DNA of 64,000 nucleotides, from the IMG/VR virus record IMGVR_UViG_3300012983_000001, positions 96,001-160,000 of that record, one strand, 5' to 3'. A model generated the notes under the pieces. The model did no database searches and was not told where the DNA came from. It saw only the letters and a program-made list of their open reading frames with translations. The position numbers and the translations under genes are program-made. The number at the start of each line of letters is the position of its first letter. The first letter of the stretch is position 1. This document shows positions 16,619 through 43,701 of this stretch, piece by piece. Source of the stretch: a virus (taxonomy: Duplodnaviria; Caudoviricetes).

Positions 16619-19600
16619 TTAATCATTGAAATCTGGTTGTTCTCCACCTGTATTCTGAGAGGTTGGCATTTGTTTGATAAGCAAGATATTTTCACCATTT
16701 TTAGTACCAGATACAAATGGATATCCATCCCACCATAATGGCAACAGAACGCATACGTTTCGGTTATCGAACCAGTCAAATACATCTTCTAATAATGCAT
16801 CAATTACACAGGTAACAGCAAACCATGCAAGGGTACCAAGACCAGCACTGGATAAACCAAGTACAGCACCGCCTGTCTTAATAGCTTTCCATGTCTTTGT
16901 AATGCCCTTTGCACTTTTATATACTGTCTTTGCAGTCTTAAATGCATCTGCGGCTGTACTAACAAATTTCTTTGCTTTGACCAAATTTTTAAGGTTCTTA
17001 GCAAATTTAAAACTTGTGTATGCAAGCACGCCTGCTTGAGCAAGTTCTACAACAGAAAACGCACCGTTAACTATGTTGGCTGTCGAGTCACGTTTTTGAT
17101 TGTTATTGATAGCGCTTGTTAACTTGTCTCGCATAATTTCAAATTCTGAGAACAAGTTAAGATATTGCTCATAATTATTACGTAGCGTTCTACGTGTCTC
17201 TATATAACTAGAGAAACAATTTAGTATTCCCAGTAAGCTTTGGCATACCTGAATCATGCCACTACGGTCTTCGGTATGGAAGCCTATCATACCCAATGTC
17301 AGTGATGTTGTAAAACCTGTATTGAGACTAAAACTATGTGTAACTTCGCGCACTATTGCAAGACCATATACATCAGCAAAACTATCGTGAATCATTACAT
17401 AGTCGTGTGCTTTAATGCCTGGACATCCTGTTAAAATTAACTGTCCTTGATATTGCTGTTGCCATCCATACAGTAAATTGCTAACACCAACACGTCTTGC
17501 TGCATCTTCACCTAAACTATAAAATGTTACTTCATAGATTAAATCTGGACCCAAAGCATCTTGTACAAGTGGACTGTCAATGATTTGTGTTTTTTGATAT
17601 GCAAAATCAATCGTATCATCACTATGAATAGTTGGTGTAGAAACAACCTTGCCACCTCTGGTATACATTACCTTGGTATTTGTATTACTGAATTTCGAAG
17701 TAACTTTAACTTGATTGTCAATAATATTTGTACAATCCAATAAATGCACCTGTGCTGCGGACTTGCATTCTTCATATACTATTCCGTTTAGGTAATTATA
17801 TCTGTATTTCTCCATCCAAAATGGTAAGCCGAAATACAAACGTGAATCAAACTGATGATAAGATGGTTTTACAATAAACTCTGGTATCTGCTGTGTACTA
17901 ACCTGAAATACATCCCATGGCGTCATATTGTATTTGTTGAAGACAAAGTTCTGCTCATGGTCGTAACCAAAGTCACTGCTATATATATAGTGTTCTCCGT
18001 TATAAGATGCTTTATAAATATTCTTCATGATATCGTATTGTTCTTGTACGCCATTCCAGAAATCTGCTAAAGATACATTTCCATCAATAAGCACTCCTGT
18101 TAATGCACCAATACCAGCACCTAATAAACCACCTAAAACAACACCAATACCTGTACCAAGTGCTGTACCAACTACAGGTACAACACTTCCGATTGCAGCA
18201 CCAATAGCGCCGCCCCACTTCATACCAATAGTTGCACCACCAACGATACCACCAGCTGCGGCAATACAAATTACTAATAATCCCTTCTGATTAAAGTACA
18301 ATCCAAAATGCTCGATACCATAAGCCGAACCTTCAAATGTATCTTCCGCAAGATAATGACACCACGATTCTCGTTTAGCCATGACTTCAGCAATGATATT
18401 ACTTGCTTCCTGGTCTTCTCCTAAGCCAAACAGTCCAAGTAAGCCATTATTTGTGTCTTTTTCTTTTGCAGAGGTAACATGTTGAATAAGCTCATGCCCA
18501 TCAGATGTAACGACAATAGTAATTTGGTCACCTAATGCAACATCACTAACATGACCATTCATGACTGGGGCCAGTCCAAGAGGGTCAGAGCCATAACCAA
18601 TTCTAAGATGCACACGAGCTCCTTCACGTAATTTTGCATGACTGTAAATTACTTGTTGTAACTTAATGAGCTTATCAGTTAGTTTTGGACCAAGACCAAG
18701 CAATAAACCAGTTGCTTTGTAAAACTTACGTACCCATTCTGCATAACCTTCGTCGTTTGCAATACTATAATCGTTTAAACCTCCTTGGGTTCTGTCAAGA
18801 TTATGATATGAATTAGTTACTGTTAATGTTGCTGTTTCTGTTGGCATATCGTTTGTACCATGTACAGCAATATCGACAACAGAGCGATGTACATAATAAT
18901 TCGTCCATAATTTTCTACCGTCATACCATTGTGCATTATCATCAAGAATACAGAATAGATATGTCGGAAAAGCACGCACTAGCCTACCGCGTGCAGAATA
19001 CTGATATTCGTCACAAAACATTGTGTTACAAATGTTTAAGCCGTCATTTAGATATTCCATGGCATTTGTTTTGTTCGTTTCATTATTCCATGGAGCCCAA
19101 TTGTCGTCATAAATCATTGCCTCTGTTTTTGCCAATACAGGTTCTGCAAAACGTTTGATATCTTTAATAGTTTTTGCATTATGTAATAAAGTATATGCTT
19201 CTTTCAGTTCATTACTAGATGCCGTTCCTATATTTGGGTCACTAATAATACTATACTTAATATTTGAACCTGCTGATTCTGCTCCCCAGAATACATGAAT
19301 GCCAGCTTCACCAATTCTATCATATACCTCGTCTCGTTGAGCAATAGTAATAGCTGCATTATTAGCATCTGGCGTTAGGAAATACCAGATTTGTGCATCA
19401 TTCCAGTGCTTCTTTCCTTTAGTAAATACCTCTCTAACAATGTCTGCAACGGAATGCTCAACTACACCTTGGTAATTGGTTTTAAATTGTCCTTCGCCGT
19501 TTAAGATATTGGACAGACCGCCAAATTTCTTTTCTGGGTGAGTAAGTCTATCATAAATTACCTGCGCAACAGCTCGTTGCGCATCTTCATCTTCACCAAG

Positions 19601-22396
19601 AGTTTCTGCTGCAACAACCTTACAAATAGCTTCGAACTCTGATGTAGTTAATGTGTACTGTGACACTACCGATGAAGAATCTGAGAAGAACAATGTTTTT
19701 TCTTTGTTTCGTCTATTTATAAGTCCCTGCTTAGCATAACTTGCAGTTCCCCAATACAATGGTAAATTGTTACCGATATCTTCAATCGTTTTACTAACAA
19801 CCAAAAGAGAGTCTGCGTTTTTATTGTGGAACCCTCTATTATAGAAATACGATGTTAATGCTAATACTTGATTATTAGTGAAATCACTAGTGTTCCAACC
19901 GTATTGCTCTAATTTAGATAACGTCTTTGGAATCATTGACTCTAATTCCAATGTCAAATAATGTTCTGCATCTTCTTTAGACATTGTCATGCCAGATGTA
20001 ATTTTAACATCTTGAGTTCCATCAAAATAGGTATTATGGAAGCCATATCCAATATCTATACCACCATCTCTTGGTTCCGCTGTGCCTAAAAATCCCTCCC
20101 AGTCCTTCACCATGTCAACAAAATCTTGTGTAACATGGAAACCTGTAGTATTGGTAGCGGATGACGCTTTTGATGTTTTAATGAATGCTTTTGGTCTAAA
20201 ACATCGTCCGTTCTTAAAATACTGTGTATCTTTCTTAACGCCACCAATAGGATATGGACTACTGTTTGCTGCATGAACAATAGAATTATTTCCTTCATAC
20301 ACAACAGTATGTGTTAAATCACTATTGCAAAGGACGTCGCCACGTTGCATTTGGTTCCATGGGACTTCAATGAAGTGTTGCGAACTAGGAATTGTATCTA
20401 CTGTCAATCTGCCTTCATCTTTTGGCATTGCGCCTATTTTCTGTAACAGATAAGTTACAAAACCAGAGCAATCAAAACATAAGCCTTTTGCATCAGATAC
20501 TTCACCTTCTGCACCCCACTTATAGGTATGTCCAATAAAACTATTGGCGCAAGTAATAAATGCTTCAATTAAGTCTGTTGCGTAAGTTTCTCCATTATAA
20601 TTAGGAGTATGAATGACTTCTCGTGTTTTACTGTATGACTTCATGTGTTTTGGTTGGTAACCATAATATGTGTCATTACCTTCTTCAAGTTCACTTAAAT
20701 AGAATGATAAGTAAGAACAAGAATAGAATACATAGAAATCAGGGTCAACATAAATATCATACTCCAACTTACTTGTGTCAATGTCATCTGTATATGCTAT
20801 ACCGTGGCTAACATTCTTTACAGAGATATTATTACCTGGATGGCTTCCATGTAACATACCCATTGGATTTTTTGGATACTTTGTATAAGGTAATTTAGTT
20901 AAGTTATTTTTCTTTCTAAAGTCAATACAATTACGAATAAATGCATCAACTTCATTGTATGTAGGCAAATGTAAGTCAGGATAAACTTCCATAGAAGTTC
21001 TAATCTTCCATTCTGCATAGTTGTCTTGTTTAATTTTAATCTCCAATCCCTGTATGCTTTGTTCGATAGTTTGATTTGAATATCTTTCGTCATCACCGCC
21101 ATGCACATGGTCAGGATTAAAATCATTGTCGTCACAATCTTCACAGTCGAACGGTCTGAACCCATGCAGTTGTTCTCGTGAAGACTGTGCAATATCATAC
21201 GCGATACAGTTCATTTGTACGTTATATAATCCAGGAAAACCTGGAACCGTATTTGTAACTACGGAATCAATTAACACGAACAATGAACCAGTAAAAGAAA
21301 CTAATTCAGATTCCAATTTAACAAAACCTACGGAATGTACTTTGGCATTATTTCTTATCAACAAATCATTTGATATTTGACATTGTTCTAATGCTTGTAC
21401 GACGCTATAGTCAGTTGTTTCCATAGTAATGCTGTAGATAGTATCCATGCCACCAATGTATTGGATAGTTGGACTGGAAATATCAGATAGCTGAATATTG
21501 GTTAAAATGTTGGAATAACCGCACTGAAATGCTGTAATAACTACATCTGATTCAGCACTATCTAACCATGTGATGTAATTGGAGTCTTCTTCTGTCACTT
21601 TGTATTCATCACAGATAATAGAGAGCATATTAGATTCTGTTGCTTTTTCTGAGTTAAAAACAGCATCACTCAAAACACTAATCTTGAATCTATTATGTTC
21701 GCTATTAGCAGGTAAGCTTTGTAACTTTTTGTAAACATGTGTTTCTGTTAAAAATCTTTGATAATAAAATCTAAATAAATCCCAGTCAATCATGTATTTA
21801 AAACATACATCTGGCATTTCCAGATATGGATACATATTGACTTCCTGCAATGTAATTTGAGCTGTCATTGCGTTCGGAAAGCCTTGCATAGTAGACATGG
21901 TAATAGACTGTAAAGCGACAGTAAAAATACCGTACATACCATTAACTAGTTCGTTCGAAATTGGTAAAAACGGTGTACATTTAAACTGCGCCAATAATTG
22001 TCTTAAGCCGTCTACATAATAAGTCCCTTCTGGACCAGGTACTGCATAACCATTCAGTTGTTCTAATCCATTAAATACAAGGTCTATCAGAATAGTACGT
22101 TTGTGATGACCTGCTTTCATTTTCTGGGTATTCTCCTGTCTCAGAGTAACAAGACTCTGAGACGTTGATTCGGAGCTTACCATTATAAATTCAGGAGGTA
22201 TCATGAAATACGTATCACCTATCTGAAGATTGTATTCATCATACATATATCTGTGAGGATATAATACATTGTCCAGCGCATCCAATGGTTCAATGCGTCG
22301 CTCGTCTTTAATTCTGGAAAACTTATCAATCATTTGTAATCCAGTGACGGTATCTTCAATACTTATCAAGTCTGCATTGTTATACTTGATTCCCAT
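16619..22396 (-). CDS. Baseplate hub / tail-associated lysin with NlpC/P60, GH24 lysozyme-like and SleB-like domains (1925 aa)
   Basis: NlpC/P60 YKWGAEG..FDCSGFV...GDVL...HTVVY...IVHA; lysozyme KDWEGF...IGYGFH...ALTSYFYNRG...GLINRRNKEKTLF; Hydrolase_2 VVAAETLGE...AVAQVIYDR...QF...HVFW; hub-like GQLILTGCPGIKAHDYV..D...VREVTHSFS..TGFTTS. Confidence 0.85.
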   Translation of the reverse strand: MGIKYNNADLISIEDTVTGLQMIDKFSRIKDERRIEPLDALDNVLYPHRYMYDEYNLQIGDTYFMIPPEFIMVSSESTSQSLVTLRQENTQKMKAGHHKRTILIDLVFNGLEQLNGYAVPGPEGTYYVDGLRQLLAQFKCTPFLPISNELVNGMYGIFTVALQSITMSTMQGFPNAMTAQITLQEVNMYPYLEMPDVCFKYMIDWDLFRFYYQRFLTETHVYKKLQSLPANSEHNRFKISVLSDAVFNSEKATESNMLSIICDEYKVTEEDSNYITWLDSAESDVVITAFQCGYSNILTNIQLSDISSPTIQYIGGMDTIYSITMETTDYSVVQALEQCQISNDLLIRNNAKVHSVGFVKLESELVSFTGSLFVLIDSVVTNTVPGFPGLYNVQMNCIAYDIAQSSREQLHGFRPFDCEDCDDNDFNPDHVHGGDDERYSNQTIEQSIQGLEIKIKQDNYAEWKIRTSMEVYPDLHLPTYNEVDAFIRNCIDFRKKNNLTKLPYTKYPKNPMGMLHGSHPGNNISVKNVSHGIAYTDDIDTSKLEYDIYVDPDFYVFYSCSYLSFYLSELEEGNDTYYGYQPKHMKSYSKTREVIHTPNYNGETYATDLIEAFITCANSFIGHTYKWGAEGEVSDAKGLCFDCSGFVTYLLQKIGAMPKDEGRLTVDTIPSSQHFIEVPWNQMQRGDVLCNSDLTHTVVYEGNNSIVHAANSSPYPIGGVKKDTQYFKNGRCFRPKAFIKTSKASSATNTTGFHVTQDFVDMVKDWEGFLGTAEPRDGGIDIGYGFHNTYFDGTQDVKITSGMTMSKEDAEHYLTLELESMIPKTLSKLEQYGWNTSDFTNNQVLALTSYFYNRGFHNKNADSLLVVSKTIEDIGNNLPLYWGTASYAKQGLINRRNKEKTLFFSDSSSVVSQYTLTTSEFEAICKVVAAETLGEDEDAQRAVAQVIYDRLTHPEKKFGGLSNILNGEGQFKTNYQGVVEHSVADIVREVFTKGKKHWNDAQIWYFLTPDANNAAITIAQRDEVYDRIGEAGIHVFWGAESAGSNIKYSIISDPNIGTASSNELKEAYTLLHNAKTIKDIKRFAEPVLAKTEAMIYDDNWAPWNNETNKTNAMEYLNDGLNICNTMFCDEYQYSARGRLVRAFPTYLFCILDDNAQWYDGRKLWTNYYVHRSVVDIAVHGTNDMPTETATLTVTNSYHNLDRTQGGLNDYSIANDEGYAEWVRKFYKATGLLLGLGPKLTDKLIKLQQVIYSHAKLREGARVHLRIGYGSDPLGLAPVMNGHVSDVALGDQITIVVTSDGHELIQHVTSAKEKDTNNGLLGLFGLGEDQEASNIIAEVMAKRESWCHYLAEDTFEGSAYGIEHFGLYFNQKGLLVICIAAAGGIVGGATIGMKWGGAIGAAIGSVVPVVGTALGTGIGVVLGGLLGAGIGALTGVLIDGNVSLADFWNGVQEQYDIMKNIYKASYNGEHYIYSSDFGYDHEQNFVFNKYNMTPWDVFQVSTQQIPEFIVKPSYHQFDSRLYFGLPFWMEKYRYNYLNGIVYEECKSAAQVHLLDCTNIIDNQVKVTSKFSNTNTKVMYTRGGKVVSTPTIHSDDTIDFAYQKTQIIDSPLVQDALGPDLIYEVTFYSLGEDAARRVGVSNLLYGWQQQYQGQLILTGCPGIKAHDYVMIHDSFADVYGLAIVREVTHSFSLNTGFTTSLTLGMIGFHTEDRSGMIQVCQSLLGILNCFSSYIETRRTLRNNYEQYLNLFSEFEIMRDKLTSAINNNQKRDSTANIVNGAFSVVELAQAGVLAYTSFKFAKNLKNLVKAKKFVSTAADAFKTAKTVYKSAKGITKTWKAIKTGGAVLGLSSAGLGTLAWFAVTCVIDALLEDVFDWFDNRNVCVLLPLWWDGYPFVSGTKNGENILLIKQMPTSQNTGGEQPDFND

Positions 22397-22410: not shown

Positions 22411-25400
22411 CTACATAAGTTCTGCAAACTTATTAGCAAGCCAGTTATCTGTTACACCACTAGTGTCAGCCTGACTATATACTGATGTATTGCCACCACC
22501 AGACATACCGATAAGCTTTGCATTATTCATGTCGTTAATATAATTTTGTGTTTTAGCTGAAACGTTGAAGTTAAAACCAGATGCTCTATCATGATACACT
22601 GTCGCTTTTTTAGACATCGGAGCCTGTTGTGGTCTAGGGCTTCGTGTTTCTGGCTGATTGTTATTATTGTTTCTTGCTGGTGTTAATGGTGATTGAGCTT
22701 TGTCATTATGTAATAAATTATTTGCAACGCCTAACGCAGCCATAGAAGCAACAGCAATACCAATAGTTTTCTTTGGCATTTTACCGAAAGCATCTTTGGT
22801 ACTTTGCCAGAACTGTCCAGAAACAGTTTTCTTTTTAACGTGTCTTTCTGCGGCACGTTTAACTGCTTCTTGTACTTGTTCTGGAGTGCGGGTTTCTAAT
22901 GCGTCATGTACTGCACCAATAGCTTTTTTGTGTTCCGCAATTAAGTCATTGACTAATGGTGTGTTTTTCAATCCGCTATGAGCTGATGTTTGTGCAACAG
23001 GACGATAATTTGATAACGCATTTAACGTATTTGTTAATGCATATGCTTCGGTATGGCTCATTGTCTTAATAGATTTTTGAGCTTCTATACCAGCCTGCTG
23101 TATCTCTTGAATATCAGTCATTACCAGAGAATCGAAACGTTTACCAATGAAATCACCAAAGCCTACAATAGAATCATCAGAAGGTTGTTTCCATCCAAAG
23201 AATGCATCCATCTGCGCTTCTGATTGAAATAATGCATAAATGTCTTGTTGTGTTTTTTTGATAACTGGCTGGTTCTCTGCCTTTAACTTTGTAATAATCT
23301 CATCAGCTCGTTGCATGGAATTATCAACAATGTCTTGTAATGACTTAAGTTCATCATCAGAAACGCCTTGATGACGTAAGCCATCTAATTCCACTTGTAC
23401 GTTAGCAAAACTGCCTTCAATGTTTCTTCGCTCTTCTATTATATCATAGGTGTTCTTCTTTAAAAAGTCTAAAGTTTCTTGATATGTTTTTTTATCGAAA
23501 AAATCCATTAACTGTGCTTCGGATGCATAACGTTCAAGGTTTTCTTCACTACCGAAACGTTGAATTAATTCCTTACGAAGAATTGTATCATATTCTTCGT
23601 CAAAGATAAATCCCCTTTCTTCGTCTCTACTTCTCGGATTGTCTGCAATCTGTTTATTGATTGATTTAATCAATTCTCCAGCGGACGATGGGTCTTTTCT
23701 GGTATCAAAGAAACCTTTGCTTACAGCATAATCATATGTCTGAGCTAATCTGTTAATGTTTGCATAGATAACTGGAGTGGTACGGCCCGCAGTTTTACTA
23801 CCAATAAGAAGCTGATTTACTCCCTGCCATGCAGAACCATATTTAGCTAAACCATTTCTTGTTTCTCCAATTTTCTTAAACGACTGAGGTAATTCAGTAA
23901 GCACCTTGCCTTCATCATCTAATAAGACACTATTAAGTGTTTTTTCGAATTTACGTTTTGTTAATCCACTTGATGTTCTTTCCTGTAATGATATAGACTC
24001 CATGTAGTCTTGAATATTAACACCATGGGATAATACGCTTTCAAACGTTCTTTTGGTACTAAAAGGCTTACCGATTTCTTTACCTGTTGATAAATCTATT
24101 TCGACGAAACGGTTATTGCCTTTATAGATATAGCTTTTATCTTGCCATCTATCAAGAGTGCCAATATCAAAATAAATATCGTTAACGGTATATGGGTCTT
24201 TTGGAGCACTGAAGGAATTAGCAAAGATATCAAGTACATTGTAAAAACCTGTACCAACATATCGTTCGGATAACTTATCAAGACCTTGTTTATTCAGTTC
24301 TTCAATAGTATGGTAAATAGATTCATCCAGAGACCCATGAAGCAACCTGTCGGCGTAATATTTATGGAAATCTGGAATTTCTTTTTGTACATCCAACAGT
24401 CTACGCAATGTTCTTAAATTCTCCAGGTTTGCTGTTTTCTGACCTGCATCTTTTGCTGACTGTATTGCACGATTGAAATCTTCCAGAGTACTATTGACAA
24501 CTAAACGTGCCATGTCATCTAACTCTCTATCAGATGCTTTAAACAATCCAGAATTGACCGCTTCAAGTATATTACGAATACCCTTCATATTGCTTTCTGG
24601 AGAATGCTTACTGTTACCAAATAACAGCGACATACCTGTAGAATAACGTGTTGTTTTTGCAATTCTTAAACCGTCATCTGCGTGCTTTACGTCGATACTC
24701 TTCTGCTCTGTTTCACTAAAGAAACCACCAGCTTTAGAAAGCATATTACTCAAACTTACATAAGTATCATTAAGTAATTGTTTTTGAGATAACGCTAATT
24801 TTGGGTCGGTCATTGCAGTAAGCAATGCATTTCTCATAGTGTAGTTTGGAGTAGAAATACTACCAATGTTCTTTTTACGGAAACGAGATGCAATAGAAGC
24901 AATAATCGAGTCTTCATCTGTCATGGTATTAAACTTCATGTGTACAAATGTATCATGCATTTGCTTTGATGTTTCCGCAGCAAAGATTTGAGCATCGCTA
25001 AGATTATCAATAGAGGATACACGAATGCTGTTATCTTTAGCCCATGCCATAATAGCACTTTCATACTCTTTAGGTTTCATTTTTTTAAGCATTGCTGCAT
25101 ATTGTCTGGTACTTGCATTTGGGTCATCTGAACCAAAAAGACCAATATCATTAACAAGCTCTGCTAATAAAGAACGAGACTCTCGTGCCGCAAAACGATT
25201 ATAAATTTCAGTAGCAGTATCAAAAACTTGCGTTCCATTAATCTTTGTATCTGTTCTGATGATACTCATACCGTCTGTCAGTATAGACAAGAATTGTTTA
25301 TCGCCATCGAAGTCAACATTATTTAAGGACGAGAATACAGCACTAGAACCACGTACTTGTGTACCAGTTAAAGTAGTATCAAGAATTACTCTTGTCATAG

Positions 25401-28400
25401 CTTGGCTTCGGAATGTTGGATAACGAGTAATTTCACCGAAAGTACCAACTTCAGAAAGATACATTGTGCCGATTTCTTCATCGAACACTTTAAGAATACT
25501 ACCTTGTTCGCTATTAATAATAGCTTGATTCAATGCTTTAATGTCTAATCCGCCAGGTGTTTGGCCATATCGTCTAGCTACAAAATCATTTAACTGACCT
25601 GTAATGGATTTCTTGGAATCAATGTGCAATCCTTCAATGTTCAGTGCATTTAATTTTCTAGCTATTGTTGTTTTACGACCAGCAAATTTGTGATGATATT
25701 CTTTGATACGTTCAAACTTATAGTTCCCAGTTTCCCAGTCGCTGTACGCTTGTAATCCTACGGCACCAACACTAATGCCTTGACGCTCAAAGGCTTCTTT
25801 ACTTATGGCAACAGCTAAACCATATTGCTTTTTGCCATCTATCATGACTTCAGCGGCCTTACGAAGATTGTCGTTACTACTTAAGGACATCAGTTCTGAA
25901 TAATAACTATCATCTTCTAGTATACGTTTTGAAATCTTTGACAGCTCTTTTTTAAGTGGCGCATATACTTCATCTTCTAATTCTTTAATGACTGCTTTAT
26001 TGTCAGGATTGATTTTAAGAATGCGTTCTAATCTATCTTTACGCTTCTTTAAAGCCTTAAGCTCAGGTGTCATCATTGCTTTAACTAAAGGAGATGCTTC
26101 ATCCTGTGCAAGTAATTCTTGAGACGTTGGCATGATATATTGCTGGAATGCTTTATAAACGTCTCCTTGCTTATCCAAGAAACCGAGTTGCTTAGATAAA
26201 CTAGTCATTGTGGAAGAATATGCTGCACTTAAAGCTTGTTTTATACCACCCTGTTTTGTGTATCTACTAGGGTTTGTTGTAATGTCAATTAATTGATTTA
26301 CGAAGTGTGAAACTGTACTTTGTTGACTCTGGAAGTATGTCTTGTCGGTTGCGCCAGTAAATACAGTCTGAATCGGAATCATTACGCCTTTAAAGTCACG
26401 ATATCCGAATTTATCTTTAACGGAAAACGAAACGTCGTTTAGGTCAATAAAGATACTATATGATTTATTATCAAGGTTTACACCAGACTTACGAGCGGCT
26501 TTCTTTAAGAAATCACTAGGCTTGCCATCTACGAAGAAAATAGAATTACGTAATTCCTTAGTAGTCATACCGCCTTTTAAACGGCTCGATTCATCAATTA
26601 AGTCGTTAATGTTAATATTAACAATATTCTTACCTTCAGCGCCGTATTTTTCTGGATTGTAATAATACATCAGTGATTCAACAATGCCTTTAGCGCTACG
26701 CTGAATTTCTGATTTACCATTTAATAAATGTATTCTATTTGCATTTTTCTGTTGACCGTATACATTGATGTATTGCTGTAAGTCTGTCTGGTCATTTTGA
26801 GCCAATCCAGTTCCTTGTGCATTATAATGTTCAGAGTAATATCTTAAGGTATCTGCCCATTCATTGTCGATTGGGTCTATGCCATCACCGCCCATTTGCA
26901 TACCACGAGTACGAATACCTTGTTCAATTCTTTGGTCATATACCATTCTGGTACCCATGTGTTCATTCATACTTTGTCTTTGAATACGAGCATTATACGT
27001 GCCAGTGGCATACATTTCTTCAATTTCTTCTACGATTGATTCGTTGATACTTGTGGATAAGATGGTATTATTCTTAATCTGGTCATATAACGTCTCAATA
27101 GCATAGCTAAAATTGTGAGCGTCGCTACTTGATGAAATAATATGTCCATCAATAAACTGAAACTTGTTTATGCCACGGAATGCTGGATTAGCTTCAGTAA
27201 TCATTCTATTCAAATGATTAACTAATGCTTGTCCCTGACCACGTTCTGTATACTGAGAAGTAATAGTATTCCATAAGGAATGGGTAGAAACAATATTACC
27301 ATGCTTCTCAAGGCCAAGATTTGCCATTACCACAGCGCCATCAGATACTTTTGCAAATAAGCTATTAGCAACACGTAATGCTTTTTGGCTGTCTGTAATG
27401 CCAGTGTACTCCATAAACTTTGTCATGTTTATACTGTGTACAGTACCTTTTTCTGCACCGTTAATCATGATTTTTGTATCAGCAATATCGCCATGTAATG
27501 GAATTACACTACTAGAACCCCAATCAAAGAATTCATCAATGTTTTCGCGTGTAAATACTGTATCAGGACCGTCATAGTAAATAAGCGTGTCATCTGGCGT
27601 TATTGCAATAGGAGTATCTCGTGTTACTACAGTTCCGTCGTGCGCTAAACGAGCAAGCATACTTTTACTACGCGCTTCGTCGACAATATCTTTGTCGAAC
27701 ATAATCTTTTTACCATCTTTAGCTTGGAATAATTCTTGTTCATTTAAACCAGGCGCAATGAATATCTTACCCTCATGTAAAGACATGAATTCTTGTTCAA
27801 AATATTCAACAGCTTTACCGTAACGAGATTCTGAAATGCCCAACTGTTTTGCCATTGCGACGTCTTCTTCAAGTTCTTGATAACGCATGATTAAATCGTA
27901 ATCATTGATTTGCTTTACTCTTGCAATCATTGAACGTTCTCTTAATGCGTAATCTTCTCCATCTATTGGCTGATATCCAGATGCCGCTAATGCCATTTTA
28001 TCTTTGTATTCTTTTTCTGTAATAACGTTAGTACCAACACGTAATGCATGTTCTTCAAAGCCGATGAATTTTTTCATATCGAATCTGCTTGGTGAGAACC
28101 ACATGCTATTATTTTGCTGATGATAAGTAGGTCTTAATGTACTGTATAAACTTGCCGCATCGTTGTAGTCGCCAGGACGTACATATGAAACAATGCCTTT
28201 TTCACTTGCAGATTCTGATAATACTTGGTTAATACCTTTGGTTTGAATTTTCTTTAATGCCTCACCTACGGACTGGTGGAAGGTATGAGTCGTATCTCGT
28301 TCTACGGTTTCAGTAATAATATCAAAAATGTTCTTATCAAATTCTGGTCCAGAGATAATGCCCTGTAAAGAAATATCACTAGCGACAGTACCAGTAAACA

Positions 28401-31400
28401 ATCGTTTCATGAAGAATTCTTTAAACTCAGTATTATTAGCAACTCGCATTAAGTATTCGGTTGCATGGCGTCCTTCTGTAATCGCTAAACCAGATGCTTT
28501 ACCGAATGCTTCAACAACTTTTTGTGCGGTATTCAGGTTATCTGCTGAATCAATAGCTACAGCGGCCTTGAAGATAGAATACAATCCTTCACTCACTTTT
28601 GCTTCATACGCCTGAATAAAATCACTTGGCGTGAATTCTGCAATACGACGTACAACTTTTTTGCCATCTACTTCAGTAATGTAGCCTCTATAAGATGCGG
28701 AGGCAGATAAATCATCCAAATATCTATTTTGAGCACGACGTACAGCATCTGTTGCTGCTCTGTATTCTCCATGTAACGTATGTTCAATAGCATGGCCATT
28801 TGCCATTCTAATGGTAGATAAGAATCCATACTCACCACTATTATAGTATGCCGCAAGTGTTCCATCACTAAAATCACGAACTTGTAATTCTGGAATGATA
28901 ATCTTTTCCATTGAACCAGTGTGTCCTTGTGTGATGGTACGTAATGTACCTTCGCTTAACTGGTATTCGTTAATTTTAGGTATCTCAATAAATGATGCAT
29001 AATCACTGATAGATTCTGCACCAACAACTGCACTATGATACTGTTCTGGGTCCAATAAAGTATAACGATTAGTAAAGTCAAATTTACCATCCATAAGAGC
29101 AGTATAAAATCTATTCATGTCCTGTTCTCTGGTCATAAACAGATATGCATTACCGTCTTCTGGTTGCGCAATAAATGCACGCAAACCCTGGTCAAGATAG
29201 TTGTTAATGGCATAACTAGTTGGCTCGCCATTGCTTGTTGTCTTATTGAATAATTCTATAAGTAACTTAGCTTCATCACTATTTGGAGCAATGTTAAGTT
29301 TAGAAGCAATGGTGTTCATGTGATTTTCAAATGCTTCTCGATTTGCATAACGACTGCTAACATAGAAAGTTTCTGGTCTCTCAGCGATTGCATCACGAAT
29401 AATGTCTTGCATATCGGTTTTTGATGCCTCATAGACTTCACTTAGTTTCAGCGTCTTTTTACCTCTTGGTTTCTTGTATTGAATAATTGCGTCACTTTCA
29501 AGGTCCACACCTAACAAATGCATGTTTTTACGTTTGCCACTTGCTGCAAAAACATTATCAATACTTTGAGTTGCACTTGTATATTTGTCCATATATCCAG
29601 ATATTGCATAACCGAGGTCTTGCGAAATGCTATACAATTCATCCGCAGGCAAAGAGGTCATTTGTTGATAAGCTCGTTGGAATGCCTCTTCGTCAAGTAT
29701 GCCGCGTTTATTAAGGTCTGTTAAAATAGTCTGCGCTTCGCTAATATCAAGACCTTGAAAGATTCTATTGATATCATATGTTATTGTATTTGCACTGTAA
29801 CCATTGATTCTGCGAATACTACCATCTGGCATTTCCACATCAATACCAAGAGCGTCAGACATTACTGCATATGATTCTTTAGCTGAATATCTTTCGTATT
29901 TGTTATCAAGATAAGCCATTGCTTGTGTGTATGCTCTCTGTACATCAATAGTTTTATCCATGTTGTTTGCATTACCATGCGTGGCTTGTACTGTTTCAAC
30001 GATTTGACGAAGTAATGGTCTTTCATTTTGAAGCTTATCATACATACCCACGAAAGCCTGGGCCTGATAATGACTTCTAATTGGTACAGGACTAGGGTTT
30101 TCTGCATTGTAATGTGTTTCAACATATCGCATTAACTCTCTAGCGGATTCACTAGTTGGCTTAATATCAAAACGTTCTTCAGCAGGTAGACTATCTAAAT
30201 CATCCATGAATTTTAAGTATTGTTGTAACGTTTCAAAACCATAGATATTGTCTTTACCATCTAAACCAACATTAACTGGGTCAATTAACTTACTAAATTC
30301 TCTACGACCAAAATCTCTATAATGAAATGCTTGTTGTTTTATCGCATCACCAGAAGTTACTTGTGCGCTAGTAAAAATACTTGAGTTATGCACTAATGTT
30401 TCTAATGCTTCTGTTTCAGAACCATACACTAAAGAGACCTTAGTAGTTCCATCGTCTACAAGGTTATCAAGCGTTAAAACATATTTGGTTTCGCCATCCA
30501 GCTCTACATAATGAGAATGTTCTTTATCAATGGTCCAATATTCATTTGTAAAAGAATAATTAGGCACAGGACTACCGTCAATAATGGCCATGTCTTGCGC
30601 ATGTTTGTGCTGTAAAGAGCCTCTATGAATTAAAAATATACTATCGTCAATGGTACTTTGAGATTTATATGAATCTGCAAAATCTTGTAATTGCTTAGTA
30701 CCATCCAGGACTTCTTGCATACGAATATCCAATAAGCGTCCTTCATTATCAACATCGGCATCACCTCGATGTATCTGTGACGCATTAATGCGTGTTACTC
30801 GTAATTGTTCATCTACAGAAGCACCTGCTCTAGTACCATATGTATTTTCAAAATATGAATTCACTGACTGCGAATTACTAGCTGCCAATGCTCTTGCTGA
30901 ATAGATAACGTCTAATATACTACCTCTAACAGAAGCGATTTCACTTGCATCAACACCTAATACTTTTGCTGTATTTACGAGTGCGTCTATATCAAATTGA
31001 CTATTTGCACCAAAAAGTACAGCGTTATCGTCATGAATAGCATCAGTAATTTCACCAATCAACATCGGTAATAGTTCATTTGGCTTTGCAACTTGATATG
31101 CATTATGTAAATTTTTGATACCTGCCCTAAATGCTGTGGCTGTACGAGTTTCTGCTGATAATTCACCAGCTACTTTAAAAGTTCTGCCATCAACTACTTC
31201 ATTACGGATAGCATCGCGACCACTATACATGCTTATACGTTTTAACGTAGTTTGCTCTGCATTATCACGCTCATTAAGACCATCCCAGCCAACTTTTTCA
31301 AACTTGTCAACTAAGCTTAATAAATAATCTCTTTGGGCATCATTAATACCAAAAATATACGAACGACCTGTGCGTGTTACATTACCACTATTATCATAAA

Positions 31401-31815
31401 TACGTGTACCAATCGCAAGCTCAGTTATACCAAACTGAGCTGCGTCTGTACCAGGTTTAGTAATATTACCAAATGTTTCTAAGTCGAAACCTAATGCACG
31501 TCCGCCATTTTGACGAATCTGTGCAAATTTTTGCCATTCATCCATTGCATCAAGGGTTTGCAAAACAGCCTTGTTGTCCCTGGAATCAAGCATTCTAAAT
31601 AAACCATCTAGTGGGAAAGAAGAAGGTTGTTTAGAATGGTTCCATATTTGATTAAAGTTTGCTTCAAGACGTTCAGTACGGGCATTCCAGAAATCATCGT
31701 ATGTACCATTACCTTGTTCTACCCATTCGTTCGAAGTAAGACCATTAATTTTAAATACATTGTTTTGTCTTGCCCATATATCATGTAATCTAAAATTAAA
31801 TCCATAGACGTCCAT
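22411..31815 (-). CDS. Giant protein at the tape-measure locus: N-terminal DEDDh exonuclease plus single-chain two-barrel RNA polymerase (putative virion RNAP), 3134 aa
   Basis: GFDLETFG (D111/E113), GANSQFD (D275), HRGDAD (H349/D354); LHEGKIF (E1348); TKIMINGAEKGTV (K1448/K1456); TRYPTF (R2131); NVDFDGD (D2168/D2170/D2172); C-terminal hydrophobic IGIAVASMAALGVA. Confidence 0.8.
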   Translation of the reverse strand: MDVYGFNFRLHDIWARQNNVFKINGLTSNEWVEQGNGTYDDFWNARTERLEANFNQIWNHSKQPSSFPLDGLFRMLDSRDNKAVLQTLDAMDEWQKFAQIRQNGGRALGFDLETFGNITKPGTDAAQFGITELAIGTRIYDNSGNVTRTGRSYIFGINDAQRDYLLSLVDKFEKVGWDGLNERDNAEQTTLKRISMYSGRDAIRNEVVDGRTFKVAGELSAETRTATAFRAGIKNLHNAYQVAKPNELLPMLIGEITDAIHDDNAVLFGANSQFDIDALVNTAKVLGVDASEIASVRGSILDVIYSARALAASNSQSVNSYFENTYGTRAGASVDEQLRVTRINASQIHRGDADVDNEGRLLDIRMQEVLDGTKQLQDFADSYKSQSTIDDSIFLIHRGSLQHKHAQDMAIIDGSPVPNYSFTNEYWTIDKEHSHYVELDGETKYVLTLDNLVDDGTTKVSLVYGSETEALETLVHNSSIFTSAQVTSGDAIKQQAFHYRDFGRREFSKLIDPVNVGLDGKDNIYGFETLQQYLKFMDDLDSLPAEERFDIKPTSESARELMRYVETHYNAENPSPVPIRSHYQAQAFVGMYDKLQNERPLLRQIVETVQATHGNANNMDKTIDVQRAYTQAMAYLDNKYERYSAKESYAVMSDALGIDVEMPDGSIRRINGYSANTITYDINRIFQGLDISEAQTILTDLNKRGILDEEAFQRAYQQMTSLPADELYSISQDLGYAISGYMDKYTSATQSIDNVFAASGKRKNMHLLGVDLESDAIIQYKKPRGKKTLKLSEVYEASKTDMQDIIRDAIAERPETFYVSSRYANREAFENHMNTIASKLNIAPNSDEAKLLIELFNKTTSNGEPTSYAINNYLDQGLRAFIAQPEDGNAYLFMTREQDMNRFYTALMDGKFDFTNRYTLLDPEQYHSAVVGAESISDYASFIEIPKINEYQLSEGTLRTITQGHTGSMEKIIIPELQVRDFSDGTLAAYYNSGEYGFLSTIRMANGHAIEHTLHGEYRAATDAVRRAQNRYLDDLSASASYRGYITEVDGKKVVRRIAEFTPSDFIQAYEAKVSEGLYSIFKAAVAIDSADNLNTAQKVVEAFGKASGLAITEGRHATEYLMRVANNTEFKEFFMKRLFTGTVASDISLQGIISGPEFDKNIFDIITETVERDTTHTFHQSVGEALKKIQTKGINQVLSESASEKGIVSYVRPGDYNDAASLYSTLRPTYHQQNNSMWFSPSRFDMKKFIGFEEHALRVGTNVITEKEYKDKMALAASGYQPIDGEDYALRERSMIARVKQINDYDLIMRYQELEEDVAMAKQLGISESRYGKAVEYFEQEFMSLHEGKIFIAPGLNEQELFQAKDGKKIMFDKDIVDEARSKSMLARLAHDGTVVTRDTPIAITPDDTLIYYDGPDTVFTRENIDEFFDWGSSSVIPLHGDIADTKIMINGAEKGTVHSINMTKFMEYTGITDSQKALRVANSLFAKVSDGAVVMANLGLEKHGNIVSTHSLWNTITSQYTERGQGQALVNHLNRMITEANPAFRGINKFQFIDGHIISSSSDAHNFSYAIETLYDQIKNNTILSTSINESIVEEIEEMYATGTYNARIQRQSMNEHMGTRMVYDQRIEQGIRTRGMQMGGDGIDPIDNEWADTLRYYSEHYNAQGTGLAQNDQTDLQQYINVYGQQKNANRIHLLNGKSEIQRSAKGIVESLMYYYNPEKYGAEGKNIVNININDLIDESSRLKGGMTTKELRNSIFFVDGKPSDFLKKAARKSGVNLDNKSYSIFIDLNDVSFSVKDKFGYRDFKGVMIPIQTVFTGATDKTYFQSQQSTVSHFVNQLIDITTNPSRYTKQGGIKQALSAAYSSTMTSLSKQLGFLDKQGDVYKAFQQYIMPTSQELLAQDEASPLVKAMMTPELKALKKRKDRLERILKINPDNKAVIKELEDEVYAPLKKELSKISKRILEDDSYYSELMSLSSNDNLRKAAEVMIDGKKQYGLAVAISKEAFERQGISVGAVGLQAYSDWETGNYKFERIKEYHHKFAGRKTTIARKLNALNIEGLHIDSKKSITGQLNDFVARRYGQTPGGLDIKALNQAIINSEQGSILKVFDEEIGTMYLSEVGTFGEITRYPTFRSQAMTRVILDTTLTGTQVRGSSAVFSSLNNVDFDGDKQFLSILTDGMSIIRTDTKINGTQVFDTATEIYNRFAARESRSLLAELVNDIGLFGSDDPNASTRQYAAMLKKMKPKEYESAIMAWAKDNSIRVSSIDNLSDAQIFAAETSKQMHDTFVHMKFNTMTDEDSIIASIASRFRKKNIGSISTPNYTMRNALLTAMTDPKLALSQKQLLNDTYVSLSNMLSKAGGFFSETEQKSIDVKHADDGLRIAKTTRYSTGMSLLFGNSKHSPESNMKGIRNILEAVNSGLFKASDRELDDMARLVVNSTLEDFNRAIQSAKDAGQKTANLENLRTLRRLLDVQKEIPDFHKYYADRLLHGSLDESIYHTIEELNKQGLDKLSERYVGTGFYNVLDIFANSFSAPKDPYTVNDIYFDIGTLDRWQDKSYIYKGNNRFVEIDLSTGKEIGKPFSTKRTFESVLSHGVNIQDYMESISLQERTSSGLTKRKFEKTLNSVLLDDEGKVLTELPQSFKKIGETRNGLAKYGSAWQGVNQLLIGSKTAGRTTPVIYANINRLAQTYDYAVSKGFFDTRKDPSSAGELIKSINKQIADNPRSRDEERGFIFDEEYDTILRKELIQRFGSEENLERYASEAQLMDFFDKKTYQETLDFLKKNTYDIIEERRNIEGSFANVQVELDGLRHQGVSDDELKSLQDIVDNSMQRADEIITKLKAENQPVIKKTQQDIYALFQSEAQMDAFFGWKQPSDDSIVGFGDFIGKRFDSLVMTDIQEIQQAGIEAQKSIKTMSHTEAYALTNTLNALSNYRPVAQTSAHSGLKNTPLVNDLIAEHKKAIGAVHDALETRTPEQVQEAVKRAAERHVKKKTVSGQFWQSTKDAFGKMPKKTIGIAVASMAALGVANNLLHNDKAQSPLTPARNNNNNQPETRSPRPQQAPMSKKATVYHDRASGFNFNVSAKTQNYINDMNNAKLIGMSGGGNTSVYSQADTSGVTDNWLANKFAELM

Positions 31816-31833: not shown

Positions 31834-34800
31834 TTATATATCTAATCCTGCTATCTGCTGTGATACATCATTACGAGCATCTCTTTGAATATACAAGGAT
31901 GTTTTAGTGCCATATGAAGACTGCATAAAACTTGTTTGTATATCGTTATAACCAGCCCTACCAAGAATCTGATTGAGTCTAATCTGTACTTGTCGAGGAT
32001 TATTGGTTGCATTTATCATAGGGATTGGGATGTTTACTGCATCAGCTTGTTCCTCATCGCTTTCCCAAATGTCAAACTCACCAGGGTCAAGATTATTTTG
32101 ATGTACTAATTTTACTTTAACGTCTTCAATATTAGTAGCTTCATTCCATCCTATCCATGAAGCATCTGGTAATCCGTGCGTCTGGAAGTATTCCTGTAAG
32201 CTAGGTTTTTTATCTACTGGCATTCCCCATGCAGACTGTAAAGCTCTTCGTAAATAACTAGGAGCAATACGTAATATCTTTTGTTTCTCTTCCTCAGGAG
32301 CATCCATAAAGTGCTTAAAATACTGTCGTTCTTTCTTTGGAAGAGCACTCATGATATTTACTAAGGAGTCACCAGGTTCATAACCATACATGGTTTTGTC
32401 CGCTGCTTGTTTATATTCAATGGCACGCATAGCATTTAATGGAAGTTTTGTTACTTTACGTTGGCTTTGTAACTCACTAAGCTCTTGATTGATTGCTCGA
32501 ATTGTTTCTTGCTTGGTCATTGATTGCTCAACATACTTTGGTTCTCCATACTTAAAATTATACCTGTCTCTATGTTTGAAATCAAGCTTAACTTTTCGTT
32601 TGAAATCAATAAGTTCCCGTTGCCTTAATGAATTAGTTACACCTTGAGCTTCATGAGATTTCATAAAACGTTCTACATCAAAGTTATTTTCCCTTTTAGC
32701 TTTGGTTTTATATTGCTCATATAGACGCATATTTTTTACGTACTTTAATACATCTACATATTCATTGAGCTTTTCTTGCTCACGTCTACGTTTTGGACGC
32801 CAATCTCGTTCTTTATCAGAGCCAGCGGCAAAGGCAATCTTTCCAATAGCTGGAAGACTTGCACCTACTGTAGCACCTACAATTTTACCAAATGCAGTTT
32901 TGCCAAATAAACTTCCGATAAAACCTCCCATAAGAATACCGCCAAGTCCAAGAAATCTATTGTTTGCGATATTTTCTTCAACGTGTGGAATTAACATGTC
33001 TCTTACTGGATTATTCCATGACTGAAAATCTTTGCCGTATACTTCACGTTTACGATATTGCTCATATGGCGAACGCACTTGCATAAATTTACTACCAATG
33101 AACGGGATGCTACCAACAATATCATGAGTTACAGTTTCCATAGCAGAACCAAATGCAATCTCTCCTTGTGAATATCTGGCACGTATGCCCGCTGGAGAAT
33201 TATCGTCTTCTTTTTCTTTTGCATGACCTTGCTCTAATAATACTCTATTAACATTCTTTCCTTTAGAATGAACAACAGCACGAATAGACCGCGTGGAATC
33301 TTTAGAATATTTATTGCGCTCATCTGCATCATAAGAAATACGAATTTTAGCACCAGGTTTTACATAACTACGTATTGCTTGACGAGCTGCTTCATTCTTG
33401 GTACGTTTATCATCATACATTTCGCTTTCTGATGCAGATACGTTAATTCCAGCAAATTTAATTGCGTGACGTTTACCGTATTCTTTAGTAATAATTGTAT
33501 TGTTGTCGATAATTTTTGCAACAGTAACAGTTTCGGATTTAAGATTTGACGTTTTGAACTTATACGGATACACACGTAATGGTTCTTTCTGTTGAGTAAC
33601 TCTATCTCGAATCTGTGATACTTCTTCTTGCTCTTCGGTAGATAGCTTTTCCATACTTAACTGTGCAGAAACATCTCTGAATTCTTGTGAATACGGAGCA
33701 ACATCAGCAAGAATTCTAAATCTATCTAATGTACTATATAACTCACCACGACCAAGTTTGCCAGTTTCAATAGCATCTCTGATAGTCTGACGAGCACCAT
33801 ATACATTATTCAAAGTAGTTTCTAATTCTTTCTGACTGTAATCAAAACCAACAGTATACGTATTCATTGGGTTTTCTTTATCTACATAATGAATGTATCC
33901 TTTTGGTGTTCCTGTTGCCCACAAGTAGTAATTTGTTTGACGCATGTGATGTGTCAAAGGCTTTTCTGCCTTACGTATTTCTTCAAGCTTTTTAGCTGAT
34001 GTAGATTTAATATCTACGATTGCTGTTCCAGTTGGAGATGTAACGTCATGTACTTTAGCATCGTACCAGCCAACAATGCCATTACGTTTATCTTCTATTT
34101 TGCCTTCTACATCAATAGCAAGTCCTGACTGTAACCATGATTGCTGAATTTCTTTATGAATACGATTACCAGTATCAAGTGTTTCTTGCTCAAAAGCACT
34201 TTTATATTTATCGGCTTTAAGCATGTGCTTGATAATGTAATCTTGTTCATATCCGATAGAAGAAGAGCCAATATTAAAATCCATTAAGCCTTTGATACCA
34301 TGTAATCTTTCGTATCCCTCACCAGGTAATCTTTCTTCACCATTATCTATTTTAGAGTAAGGGTCGCCGTGCTTAAAATCTGTAAAGTAATTGGAACCAG
34401 GCATCCATGAAGGCATGGTATTTCTAATTGGATTGATGTATTCGACATTATTATTTCGTTTAGGAACAAAACGACGTGTAATTTCAGATAATCCTCCGCC
34501 TAAACCACCAAGATTAGCTTCCCAGAAATCATTATTGACACTGTATGCATACCCTGAATTTTCAATTACTCTTGCATTTTGATTAGCTTCGCCTGTAATA
34601 AAATTTTGCACTGCAAAACCTTTAAGACCTGCAATGTCAGCCAGCCAGTTGTATTGCTCGCCCATGCCATATACAAACGCATTATCAATAGATGGATTGT
34701 CATTACCAACAGGAATACCAGGTCCCATAAAATCATTGATTTCTACTTGCTGATTGGTGCCAAGAATTTTATTGATACTGTACATTTGTAAGTCTTGGTT

Positions 34801-42694: not shown

Positions 42695-42726
42695 GATGAT
42701 TCTCTCCTTTCACATTATTCAAATAA

Positions 42727-42755
42727 ATTATAGCATATACAACAAAATGAGCCAA
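42727..42755 (-). promoter_or_regulatory. sigmaA-type promoter: -35 TTGGCT, 17-nt spacer, extended -10 TG-C-TATAAT
   Basis: Minus strand TTGGCT CATTTTGTTGTATATGC TATAAT, about 30 nt upstream of the 560-aa start. Confidence 0.6.
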
Positions 42756-42791
42756 GCCCTTTTTTTGACTTGACTCACTTTGTTTATGCTA
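42731..42791 (-). terminator. Probable intrinsic terminator after the tail tube gene
   Basis: Minus strand AACAAAGTGAGTCAAG-loop-CTTGGCTCATTTTGTT (16-bp stem with G:U pairs), U-rich 3' arm, outer TAGCATA/TATGCTA extension. Confidence 0.6.
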
Positions 42792-42816
42792 AAAATCTGA
42801 TTTGATTGAATTAGCA

Positions 42817-43701
42817 CTATGCGTTATAAGACGGACCGCCAAAAACGTTTGCTGTATTAACCTGCTTAGAAGCAGATGTAGGAGCAACGCCTCTGAGATT
42901 ACCAGCGTCATCACGAGTGTAAACACCACGGATGAGTGGACTCAGTCTACGAGCAATCCATGTTACCTGACGAGCCATTACTACTGTATCAACAGAAGCA
43001 CCAGAGCTCTCATTCAGGATATCAACATCGTAAATCTTCTGGAATGCGGTATGGCCGTATTCAGAAGCGAATGTTAATGTAACATCGAATGGCGGTAAGG
43101 TGTCAGCATAGATTACGTTCTCACCACGAATCGGAGCGAAACCTGCTGGAACGAAAATCTTGTCACCGTCCTGATTCCAATCTTCTACGAAACCAGTCTG
43201 CTGGTTAATGATTGGGCTGTTGTTAGAACCTTCAGTGGACTGAGCGCTGATTGCGTTGGTGTAATCACCAGAAGCAGTAGCGCCGAAAGAGAAACCGTAA
43301 CCAGCTCTCTTAGCTGTATCATCTTCTGCAAGAGCAGCCTGAGATACTGTTGCATTCCACTTAATCATATCCAGAGCGTTTGTGAAGTCTTCAGACATAG
43401 ACGGAACATTGTTAGCAGCTGCGGTAAACATAGCGGATGGAGCGATGTCGTCCCATACGGTCTGTAATGCAGATACTAATGCGTCATGGTCAAATACTGC
43501 AAATACCATGGAACCAGCGATGCCACGCTTACCTCTGGAGAAAGAACGTGCATCAGGAGAACCACATGTAAATACAGGTGCCTTATCTCTTTGTACTGCC
43601 CATGAAATCTGCTGAAGTTCGCCAATTACTTTATTAGCAAATGTAGCAACTAAGTCAGCACCAGAGAAACTTGTTAAGGTTTGGATAGTTGGACTTGCCA
43701 T
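42817..43701 (-). CDS. Major tail tube protein (294 aa)
   Basis: Follows the sheath gene. SFSGADLVATF..IGELQQISW...DKAPV..GS...SFSRGKRGIAGSMVF...LPPFDVTLTFASEYG; strong AAGGAGG RBS; highly-expressed-type codon bias. Confidence 0.85.
   Translation of the reverse strand: MASPTIQTLTSFSGADLVATFANKVIGELQQISWAVQRDKAPVFTCGSPDARSFSRGKRGIAGSMVFAVFDHDALVSALQTVWDDIAPSAMFTAAANNVPSMSEDFTNALDMIKWNATVSQAALAEDDTAKRAGYGFSFGATASGDYTNAISAQSTEGSNNSPIINQQTGFVEDWNQDGDKIFVPAGFAPIRGENVIYADTLPPFDVTLTFASEYGHTAFQKIYDVDILNESSGASVDTVVMARQVTWIARRLSPLIRGVYTRDDAGNLRGVAPTSASKQVNTANVFGGPSYNA

Follow-up and report, generated by a model that had tools for sequence, protein, structure and literature searches.

We analysed a 64,000-nucleotide stretch of viral DNA (the window; positions 96,001 to 160,000 of IMG/VR record IMGVR_UViG_3300012983_000001), which contains in its tail module a gene for a protein of 3134 amino acids (aa) with the motifs of a two-barrel RNA polymerase (RNAP). 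This protein and its open reading frame (ORF) are referred to as P0001, and the features of the locus are listed in Table 1. The source virus record is complete according to IMG/VR (208,433 bp), the window being a part of it. The phage is a 208-kb jumbo myovirus and a relative of Bacillus phage 0305phi8-36, which is its nearest isolated relative (37% identity of the sheath proteins). The genome has a guanine-cytosine content of 36.9% and strong Shine-Dalgarno sites. Phage DNA was seen in animal gut metagenomes (those of one study, with small shares elsewhere), and no RNA sequencing run was listed as carrying the sequence of the phage.

Table 1. Features of the P0001 gene, its neighbours and the second polymerase gene (window positions unless indicated otherwise; aa positions refer to P0001)
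Feature	Position	Strand	Remarks
P0001, 3134-aa ORF	22411..31815	-	ORF list and translation; tape-measure slot of tail module
DEDDh-type 3'-5' exonuclease-like domain, aa ~80-400	30616..31578	-	D111, E113, D275, H349, D354
beta/Rpb2-like module, aa 1290-1634	26914..27948	-	with first double-psi barrel
LHEGKIF, aa 1346-1352	27760..27780	-	
Acidic pair E1348-G1349	27769..27774	-	candidate counterpart of beta E813/D814
TKIMINGAEKGTV, aa 1447-1459	27439..27477	-	holds K1448 ... E1455-K1456
K1448...E1455-K1456 motif	27448..27474	-	counterpart of beta K1065/K1073
Inter-barrel region, aa 1635-1974	25894..26913	-	mostly helical, with small sheets
beta'/Rpb1-like module, aa 1975-2450	24466..25893	-	second barrel and helical region
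TRYPTF, aa 2130-2135	25411..25428	-	R2131, P2133; counterpart of beta' NRAPTLH
NVDFDGD, aa 2166-2172	25300..25320	-	metal-binding Asp triad D2168/D2170/D2172
Helical motifs RKxNIGxISTPN (aa 2313-2324) and EQKxIDxKH (aa 2370-2378)	24682..24879	-	conserved
C-terminal module, aa 2990-3134	22414..22848	-	conserved across P0001 family
Tail chaperonin gene pair, 242 and 183 aa	37760..39052	-	homologous to 0305phi8-36 ORF143/144; PHROGs 29368/29362
Upstream 1990-aa neighbour	31834..37806	-	homologous to gp145, a virion protein of 0305phi8-36
Downstream 1925-aa hub / tail-lysin protein	16619..22396	-	homologue of 0305phi8-36 gp147
337-aa protein			counterpart of gpV-like ORF148/149 (spike) of 0305phi8-36
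P0097, 1285-aa RdRP/YonO-like polymerase	genome 193154-197011 (L004:655-4512), outside window	+	PF05183, E 5.6e-20

The beta'-like module carries the Asp triad and, upstream of it, the conserved arginine. R2131 and D2168 are 37 residues apart, compared with 35 residues between R425 and D460 of the beta' subunit of Escherichia coli MG1655. A deep alignment of the beta'-like motif region (A3; 70 sequences) and one of the beta-like motif region (A4; 53 sequences) were made, both with identities down to ~20%. D2168, D2170, D2172 and P2133 are invariant in A3 (70/70), R2131 and G2171 are each found in 69/70 sequences and F2135 in 67/70. In the helical motifs further downstream G2318, S2321, E2370, Q2371, I2374 and K2377 are invariant in the 70 sequences and H2378 is present in 57/70; these motifs are candidate bridge-helix and trigger-loop-type elements. 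Among the other ORFs of at least 300 aa in the genome only one has such an Asp motif (DHDGD), a separate gene resembling RNA-dependent RNA polymerases (RdRP).

The beta-like module contains two lysines, K1448 and K1456, which are 8 residues apart, the same spacing as that of K1065 and K1073 in E. coli MG1655 beta (GDKMAGRHGNKG), and the lysine motif precedes D2168 by 720 residues. K1448, E1455, K1456, H1505 and R1629 are invariant in the 53 sequences of A4. With these lysines the module provides the predicted second barrel with two conserved basic residues that characterizes the two-barrel (double-psi beta-barrel) RNAP superfamily. The preliminary description of this DNA had placed four motif groups in the 3134-aa ORF, in beta-then-beta' order, and had quoted reference spacings for E. 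coli RNAP. All four groups were found where it had put them, the beta-like motifs and module preceding the beta'-like ones, the quoted spacings hold in MG1655 beta and beta', and its expectation that DFDGD and the lysines are conserved in homologues was borne out by both alignments. Its acidic motif, E1348, was borne out in part. E1348 itself is variable, and at least one acidic residue is present at position 1348 or 1349 in 53/53 homologues (EG in 31, ED in 10, QD in 4, DD in 2, GD in 2, then ND, AD, KD and ES). In E. coli MG1655 beta the candidate counterpart lies in NFED (811-814).

Predicted structures were obtained with AlphaFold2. The model of aa 1975-2450, the second one made, was built from 70 sequences and reached a predicted local distance difference test (pLDDT) value of 88.3 and a predicted template modelling score (pTM) of 0.81. 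In a Foldseek search with this model approximately 47 of the best 50 rows were largest RNAP subunits (bacterial, poxviral, plastid and phiKZ), with E-values of single rows of only 0.1-0.9. In a shape search of the ESM Atlas every row among the matches listed belonged to the beta'/A'/Rpb1 family, with template modelling (TM) scores of 0.43-0.49 and 282-327 of the 476 residues aligned. The structural alignments continue from the Rpb1 active-site domain into Rpb1 ~1100-1400. Aa 1290-1634 structurally match the second-largest subunits of the beta/Rpb2 type over their barrel region. These results agree with the two-barrel reading of the preliminary description, as the predicted structure of aa 1975-2450 matches the beta'/Rpb1 type only and that of aa 1290-1634 the beta/Rpb2 type. 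Profile comparisons with hhalign gave a single alignment of A3 with E. coli beta' (beta' 442-469), in which NVDFDGD is in register with NADFDGD 458-464 (E 0.0036), and a single alignment of A4 with E. coli beta, which places LHEGK... on NFED 811-831 with a weak E-value of 0.24.

Among viral structures (BFVD) the best structural neighbours of the 1975-2450 model were A0A7R7G2L5 (E 0.007) and, as second match, a giant protein of Acinetobacter jumbo phage vB_AbaM_ME3 (E 0.033). A search of the genome of phage ME3 with the A3 profile gave no match, despite the structural match in BFVD.

Although single scores are middling, each module matches only its corresponding subunit and the motifs agree with these matches, and for this reason we consider it very probable that aa 1290-2450 constitute an RNAP core of the multisubunit type, two-barrelled and in a single chain. 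Several results weigh against this assignment. Scans of P0001 and its parts with Pfam and PHROGs gave no meaningful family, and phmmer and profile hmmsearch searches of PDB sequences returned nothing relevant for P0001. The first AlphaFold2 model, which covers aa 1290-2450 (1161 residues) and was built from the shallower set of 19 sequences (pLDDT 72, pTM 0.57), has pLDDT values below 50 around the DFDGD loop. Foldseek with this 1161-residue whole-core model returned nothing significant; a structural signal emerged only when VIA-align or the single-module model was used. No RNAP family in Pfam matched P0001 at E <= 1. The preliminary description had proposed a comparison with RNA_pol_Rpb1_2 (PF00623); this model found nothing in the whole phage genome, while it gave matches in 14/14 control genomes. 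Short motifs arise by chance in proteins of 3000 residues, and with no sequence library recognising the region the motifs might be fortuitous in a tail protein that is large and low in information. This explanation is contradicted by the family-wide invariance of the motifs, their order and spacing and the two independent structural matches to the corresponding subunits, and its probability is close to nil.

P0001 belongs to a family of large proteins. A word-indexed search identified 18 homologues of 3105-3453 aa with identities of 76-28%, and an exhaustive profile search extended these to approximately 84 representative clusters (50% identity), nearly all of 3100-3650 aa, with no known polymerases among them. 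Searches of the GenBank phage collection with tblastn and megablast gave no P0001 match even at E 10, searches with the A3 profile gave no match in the phages 0305phi8-36, MTATph1 (Moorella) and WH1 (Bacillus), and no published description of the family was found in literature searches. Since all catalytic residues are strictly invariant, the core is likely an active enzyme. A domain derived from an RNAP, inactivated and serving only a structural role in a tape measure or ejection protein, would be in line with the very fast divergence of the tape-measure slot protein in this lineage, of which the 0305phi8-36 version lacks DxDxD (PMC2147016). Every catalytic residue of P0001, however, is invariant over 53-70 sequences at overall identities down to ~20%. 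Inactive relics normally lose their catalytic residues, and we regard such a relic as very improbable.

The RNAP core is flanked by two other conserved regions. The N-terminal region (aa ~80-400) is, judged from its motifs, exonuclease-like and of the DEDDh type: ExoI (D-x-E), ExoII (D) and ExoIII (H-x4-D) are present in the order of DEDDh (DnaQ-like) proteins, D111, E113, H349 and D354 are invariant in 19 homologues and D275 is conserved in at least 90% of them. A language-model feature search of the N-terminus pointed to RNase_H_2 and PolB-exonuclease clusters at 0.86-0.88, which we take as a lead only. The C-terminal module consists of a Gly/Ala-rich hydrophobic segment (3018-3035), an N/Q/P-rich linker and a tail ending in ...NWLANKFAELM. 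This layout is common to P0001, the 2537-aa protein gp146 of 0305phi8-36 and gp034 of a cultured phage described below; in P0001 and gp146 it comprises the Gly/Ala-rich hydrophobic segment, a P/Q/N-rich linker, ...N-V-x-x-x-A-K... and a final ...WL..(K/Q)F.... Alignment of the P0001 family profile with the last 27 residues of gp146 (hhalign) gave a score of 22.9, compared with 12.4 +/- 2.6 for 100 shuffles, of which 0/100 reached 22.9, and 8.8-12.0 for five control protein C-termini.

The P0001 gene lies among the genes of a contractile tail. Synteny with 0305phi8-36 is exact, with the chaperonins, the gp145 homologue, P0001 in the slot of gp146, the hub/lysin and the gpV-like spike, and the same order was found around P0001 homologues in relatives at 76% and 29% identity. 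PHROGs around the locus include two sheath paralogues, tube paralogues, chaperonin-like genes and a baseplate wedge. The location between the tail chaperones and the baseplate hub given in the preliminary description was confirmed by PHROGs, domain and synteny data, and it is the tape-measure position, which P0001 shares with the 1990-aa gene. A tape measure would be a long, extended helical protein whose length determines that of the tail; of P0001, at least aa 1290-2450 are predicted to be globular alpha/beta. The 1990-aa protein is 39% identical to gp145 over 748 aa (BLASTP, E 7e-153), and both gp145 and gp146 of 0305phi8-36 were found in virions by mass spectrometry (MS), according to the sequence record. 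The 1990-aa protein may be the true determinant of tail length or act as a partner of the polymerase. The 1925-aa hub protein has three different peptidoglycan hydrolase domains (NlpC/P60, phage lysozyme and Hydrolase_2), and its homologue gp147 is a T4 gp27-like hub (PMC2147016).

A number of additional observations were made on these neighbours. The start of the 1990-aa gene overlaps the chaperonin gene by 47 nucleotides (37760-37806), like ORF144/145 in 0305phi8-36, and its product has Gly-rich hydrophobic stretches at ~aa 1618-1664 and a weak DUF3854 match at aa 1447-1530. The hub protein has four strongly hydrophobic Gly-rich segments (aa 1371-1432 and 1851-1869). Two tail-tube paralogues (41012-43701, minus strand) match phrog_9206, labelled 'major head protein'; in the RefSeq record of 0305phi8-36 the product of ORF140/141 is likewise named major head protein, though its own notes say tail tube. 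One tail-tube paralogue also has endolysin-like or peptidoglycan-binding repeats. In Moorella phage MTATph1 (L009:30512-37868) the gene in the equivalent slot is apparently interrupted by a transposase (CDS0027, transposase CDS0028, CDS0029-0031).

A cultured phage, Bacillus phage vB_BauM_KLEB27-3, encodes a distant homologue of P0001, gp034 (L010:30784-38088; 2434 aa), which is annotated as 'structural protein' and whose gene lies immediately upstream of a baseplate protein gene. It matches the A3 profile with E-values of 3e-9 to 3e-10 and has NRYPT...DYDGD at ~1933, a K-x9-K-N-G element at ~1297 and a C-terminal tail ending in ...NWLQQKF.... Its N-terminal 640 residues align with the P0001 family (hhalign probability 86%, E 5.5e-6), the DxE and H-x4-D exonuclease motifs included. 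In KLEB27-3 the counterpart of the 1990-aa protein is split into gp031 and gp033.

From the position of the gene, the weak C-terminal link to the MS-verified gp146 and the precedents of Thermus phage P23-45 and the crAss-like phages, we infer that P0001 is carried in the virion and ejected. P0001 would then be a multidomain tail-internal protein in the tape-measure slot, with the putative RNAP core between the DEDDh-type exonuclease-like domain and the C-terminal hydrophobic and tail module. Its beta-like barrel would supply K1448/K1456 and the acidic residue at 1348/1349, its beta'-like barrel R2131 and the Mg-binding triad D2168/D2170/D2172, and the helical region that follows may correspond to later parts of beta'/Rpb1. 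Built into the tail via the C-terminal module, the protein would exit through the tube upon contraction, refold in or at the host membrane and transcribe the first phage genes without host RNAP, and P0097 may take over transcription later, as in P23-45. We consider this whole scenario, a tail-internal ejected protein with a central RNAP that transcribes the first phage genes, fairly probable, with appreciable room for doubt.

The objections to this scenario concern gp146, the geometry of the tail and the promoters. The tape-measure assignment of gp146 by Hardies et al. was based on the length of the protein, of which they found only the last ~60 residues conserved with prophage relatives (PMC2147016). 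No DxDxD is present in gp146, and BLASTP and full-length hhalign comparisons with P0001 or its family showed no similarity, only the last ~27 residues being alike; the virion evidence for gp146 therefore transfers to P0001 only weakly. A folded core of ~130 kDa cannot fit in the lumen of the tail tube. A count of 9-mers in upstream regions found only Shine-Dalgarno sequences and no phage-specific promoter motif. A real and active RNAP core that is produced late, together with the structural proteins, and functions in the infected cell, for example in late transcription or a packaging-linked process, would need no delivery; it would fit the only MS-verified positional counterpart, which lacks RNAP motifs, the want of direct virion evidence and the difficulty of accommodating a folded core in the tube. 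Yet tail-internal and hub genes flank the P0001 gene in every relative examined, the C-terminal module is common to P0001 and gp146, and gp034 of KLEB27-3 is annotated as structural. In addition, a 3134-aa fusion with a hydrophobic C-terminus would be an unusual construction for a late polymerase acting in solution, and the genome already encodes a stand-alone polymerase. We regard a late-acting polymerase as unlikely.

The fusion of the polymerase to a hydrophobic C-terminal segment and an exonuclease-like domain could also mean that the two-barrel enzyme is mainly something other than a polymerase for gene expression, namely a membrane-anchored motor that pulls in the genome by transcribing it, a primer maker, or an RNA-template enzyme with exonuclease trimming. 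Hardies et al. raised polymerase-assisted injection as a possibility in this group of phages (PMC2147016), Chaban et al. proposed for gp96 of P23-45 that transcription is coupled to translocation of the DNA (PMC10770324), and the two-barrel enzymes include RNA-dependent and DNA polymerases (PMC7824862, PMC9508822). The structural neighbours of P0001 are, however, DNA-dependent multisubunit RNAPs and not enzymes of the QDE-1/RdRP type, and we consider a principal function outside gene expression distinctly unlikely. A motor role and a transcription role are mutually compatible. An ejected P0001 polymerase tethered to the envelope via its C-terminal module and transcribing the emerging DNA might be both pre-early transcriptase and motor for the 208-kb genome, with the exonuclease acting on nascent RNA or host nucleic acids. 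This combination is proposed tentatively, with more doubt than confidence; if true, no earlier RNA polymerase would be known in which an exonuclease of the DnaQ type is covalently attached.

The second polymerase of the phage, P0097, has DHDGD at ~aa 704 and an N-terminal Rho_N/SAP-like motif, and its gene lies early in a plus-strand gene block, the point of divergence from the structural block being at ~186 kb. Its counterpart in 0305phi8-36 is orf99 (PMC2147016; PMC7824862), and it is likely a non-virion polymerase. No PF05183 match was found in P0001 and hhalign of A3 against P0097 gave nothing, so that the tail-slot RNAP and P0097 are unrelated at the profile level. The genome studied here has both the tail-slot RNAP module and a PF05183-type polymerase. 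KLEB27-3 has the tail-slot module, with no PF05183-type polymerase detected, 0305phi8-36 lacks the tail-slot module and has a PF05183-type polymerase, and in Moorella phage MTATph1 neither was detected. The two polymerases are independent modules in this lineage.

Among the known systems close to P0001 is gp96 of Thermus phage P23-45, a tape-measure-fused virion RNAP (PMC10770324). Both proteins are giant proteins in the tape-measure slot with a single-chain two-barrel RNAP, predicted in the case of P0001, and a DFDGD triad, and both phages encode a second, stand-alone polymerase. Of the known RNAPs, gp96 alone showed a marginal profile similarity to the P0001 family: hhalign of A3 against gp96 residues 1-1200 gave a single alignment of 124 columns, including RxP and DFDGD 779-783 (probability 51%, E 1.5e-4), while A4, from the beta-like module, gave nothing significant. 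The differences are that P23-45 is a siphovirus and the RNAP of gp96 (5002 residues) takes up the N-terminal ~1200, with a metallopeptidase downstream, whereas P0001 belongs to a contractile tail, has a central RNAP (1290-2450 of 3134) preceded by the exonuclease-like domain, and no peptidase was seen in it. Moreover, the two polymerases of P23-45 are paralogous, while P0097 is PF05183/YonO-like and without similarity to the P0001 core. In the crAss-like phage phi14:2 the virion-packaged single-chain RNAP is gp66 (bioRxiv 10.1101/2020.03.07.982082), encoded by one of three neighbouring virion genes of giant size (g065-g067), an arrangement that resembles the 1990/3134/1925-aa trio described here. 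This phage is podovirus-like and its motif is DFDID; hhalign of either P0001 module against the single gp66 sequence gave no significant alignment.

The best structural neighbours of both P0001 modules are the multisubunit RNAPs (bacterial beta/beta', Rpb2/Rpb1, vaccinia Rpo132/Rpo147 and those of African swine fever virus), with the same catalytic motifs and spacings. P0001 differs from these in being one polypeptide with the beta part first and in being much reduced, the acidic pair and the lysines being separated by ~100 residues compared with ~250 in E. coli beta. The jumbo myoviruses phiKZ and Bacillus phage AR9 have multisubunit virion RNAPs, the only form in which virion RNAPs of contractile-tailed jumbo phages are known so far (PMC7598289). 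These are likewise phage-encoded two-barrel RNAPs, found in a jumbo phage particle and used for early transcription, as is proposed for P0001; their RNAPs consist of several beta/beta'-like subunits with genes outside the tape-measure slot, while P0001 is made as one chain together with tail-protein modules. SPbeta YonO and 0305phi8-36 orf99 (PF05183) are single-chain two-barrel polymerases of Bacillus phages and resemble P0097; P0001 differs from them in having no PF05183 match and in having multisubunit-type enzymes as structural neighbours. With gp146 of 0305phi8-36, P0001 shares the slot between the gp145 and gp147 homologues and the C-terminal layout.

What is new is a sequence family with an exonuclease-RNAP-tail module architecture in a single chain, in the tape-measure slot and in a contractile-tailed morphotype. 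Single-chain virion two-barrel RNAPs have so far been characterised in only two groups, the crAss-like podoviruses and Thermus siphovirus P23-45. The P0001 family would be a third lineage, without relationship to the other two at the sequence level and found in relatives of 0305phi8-36 that are jumbo phages with contractile tails, which suggests that the arming of the tail's internal protein with a transcription enzyme arose, or was kept, repeatedly. The P0001 core offers a minimal beta-beta' fusion for work on RNAP evolution, and gp034 of KLEB27-3 is a cultured member of the family in which the idea of a virion RNAP is directly testable. The annotation 'tape measure' in this lineage hides probable enzymes and, as the BFVD neighbours indicate, hidden polymerases of a similar kind may exist in other jumbo myoviruses.

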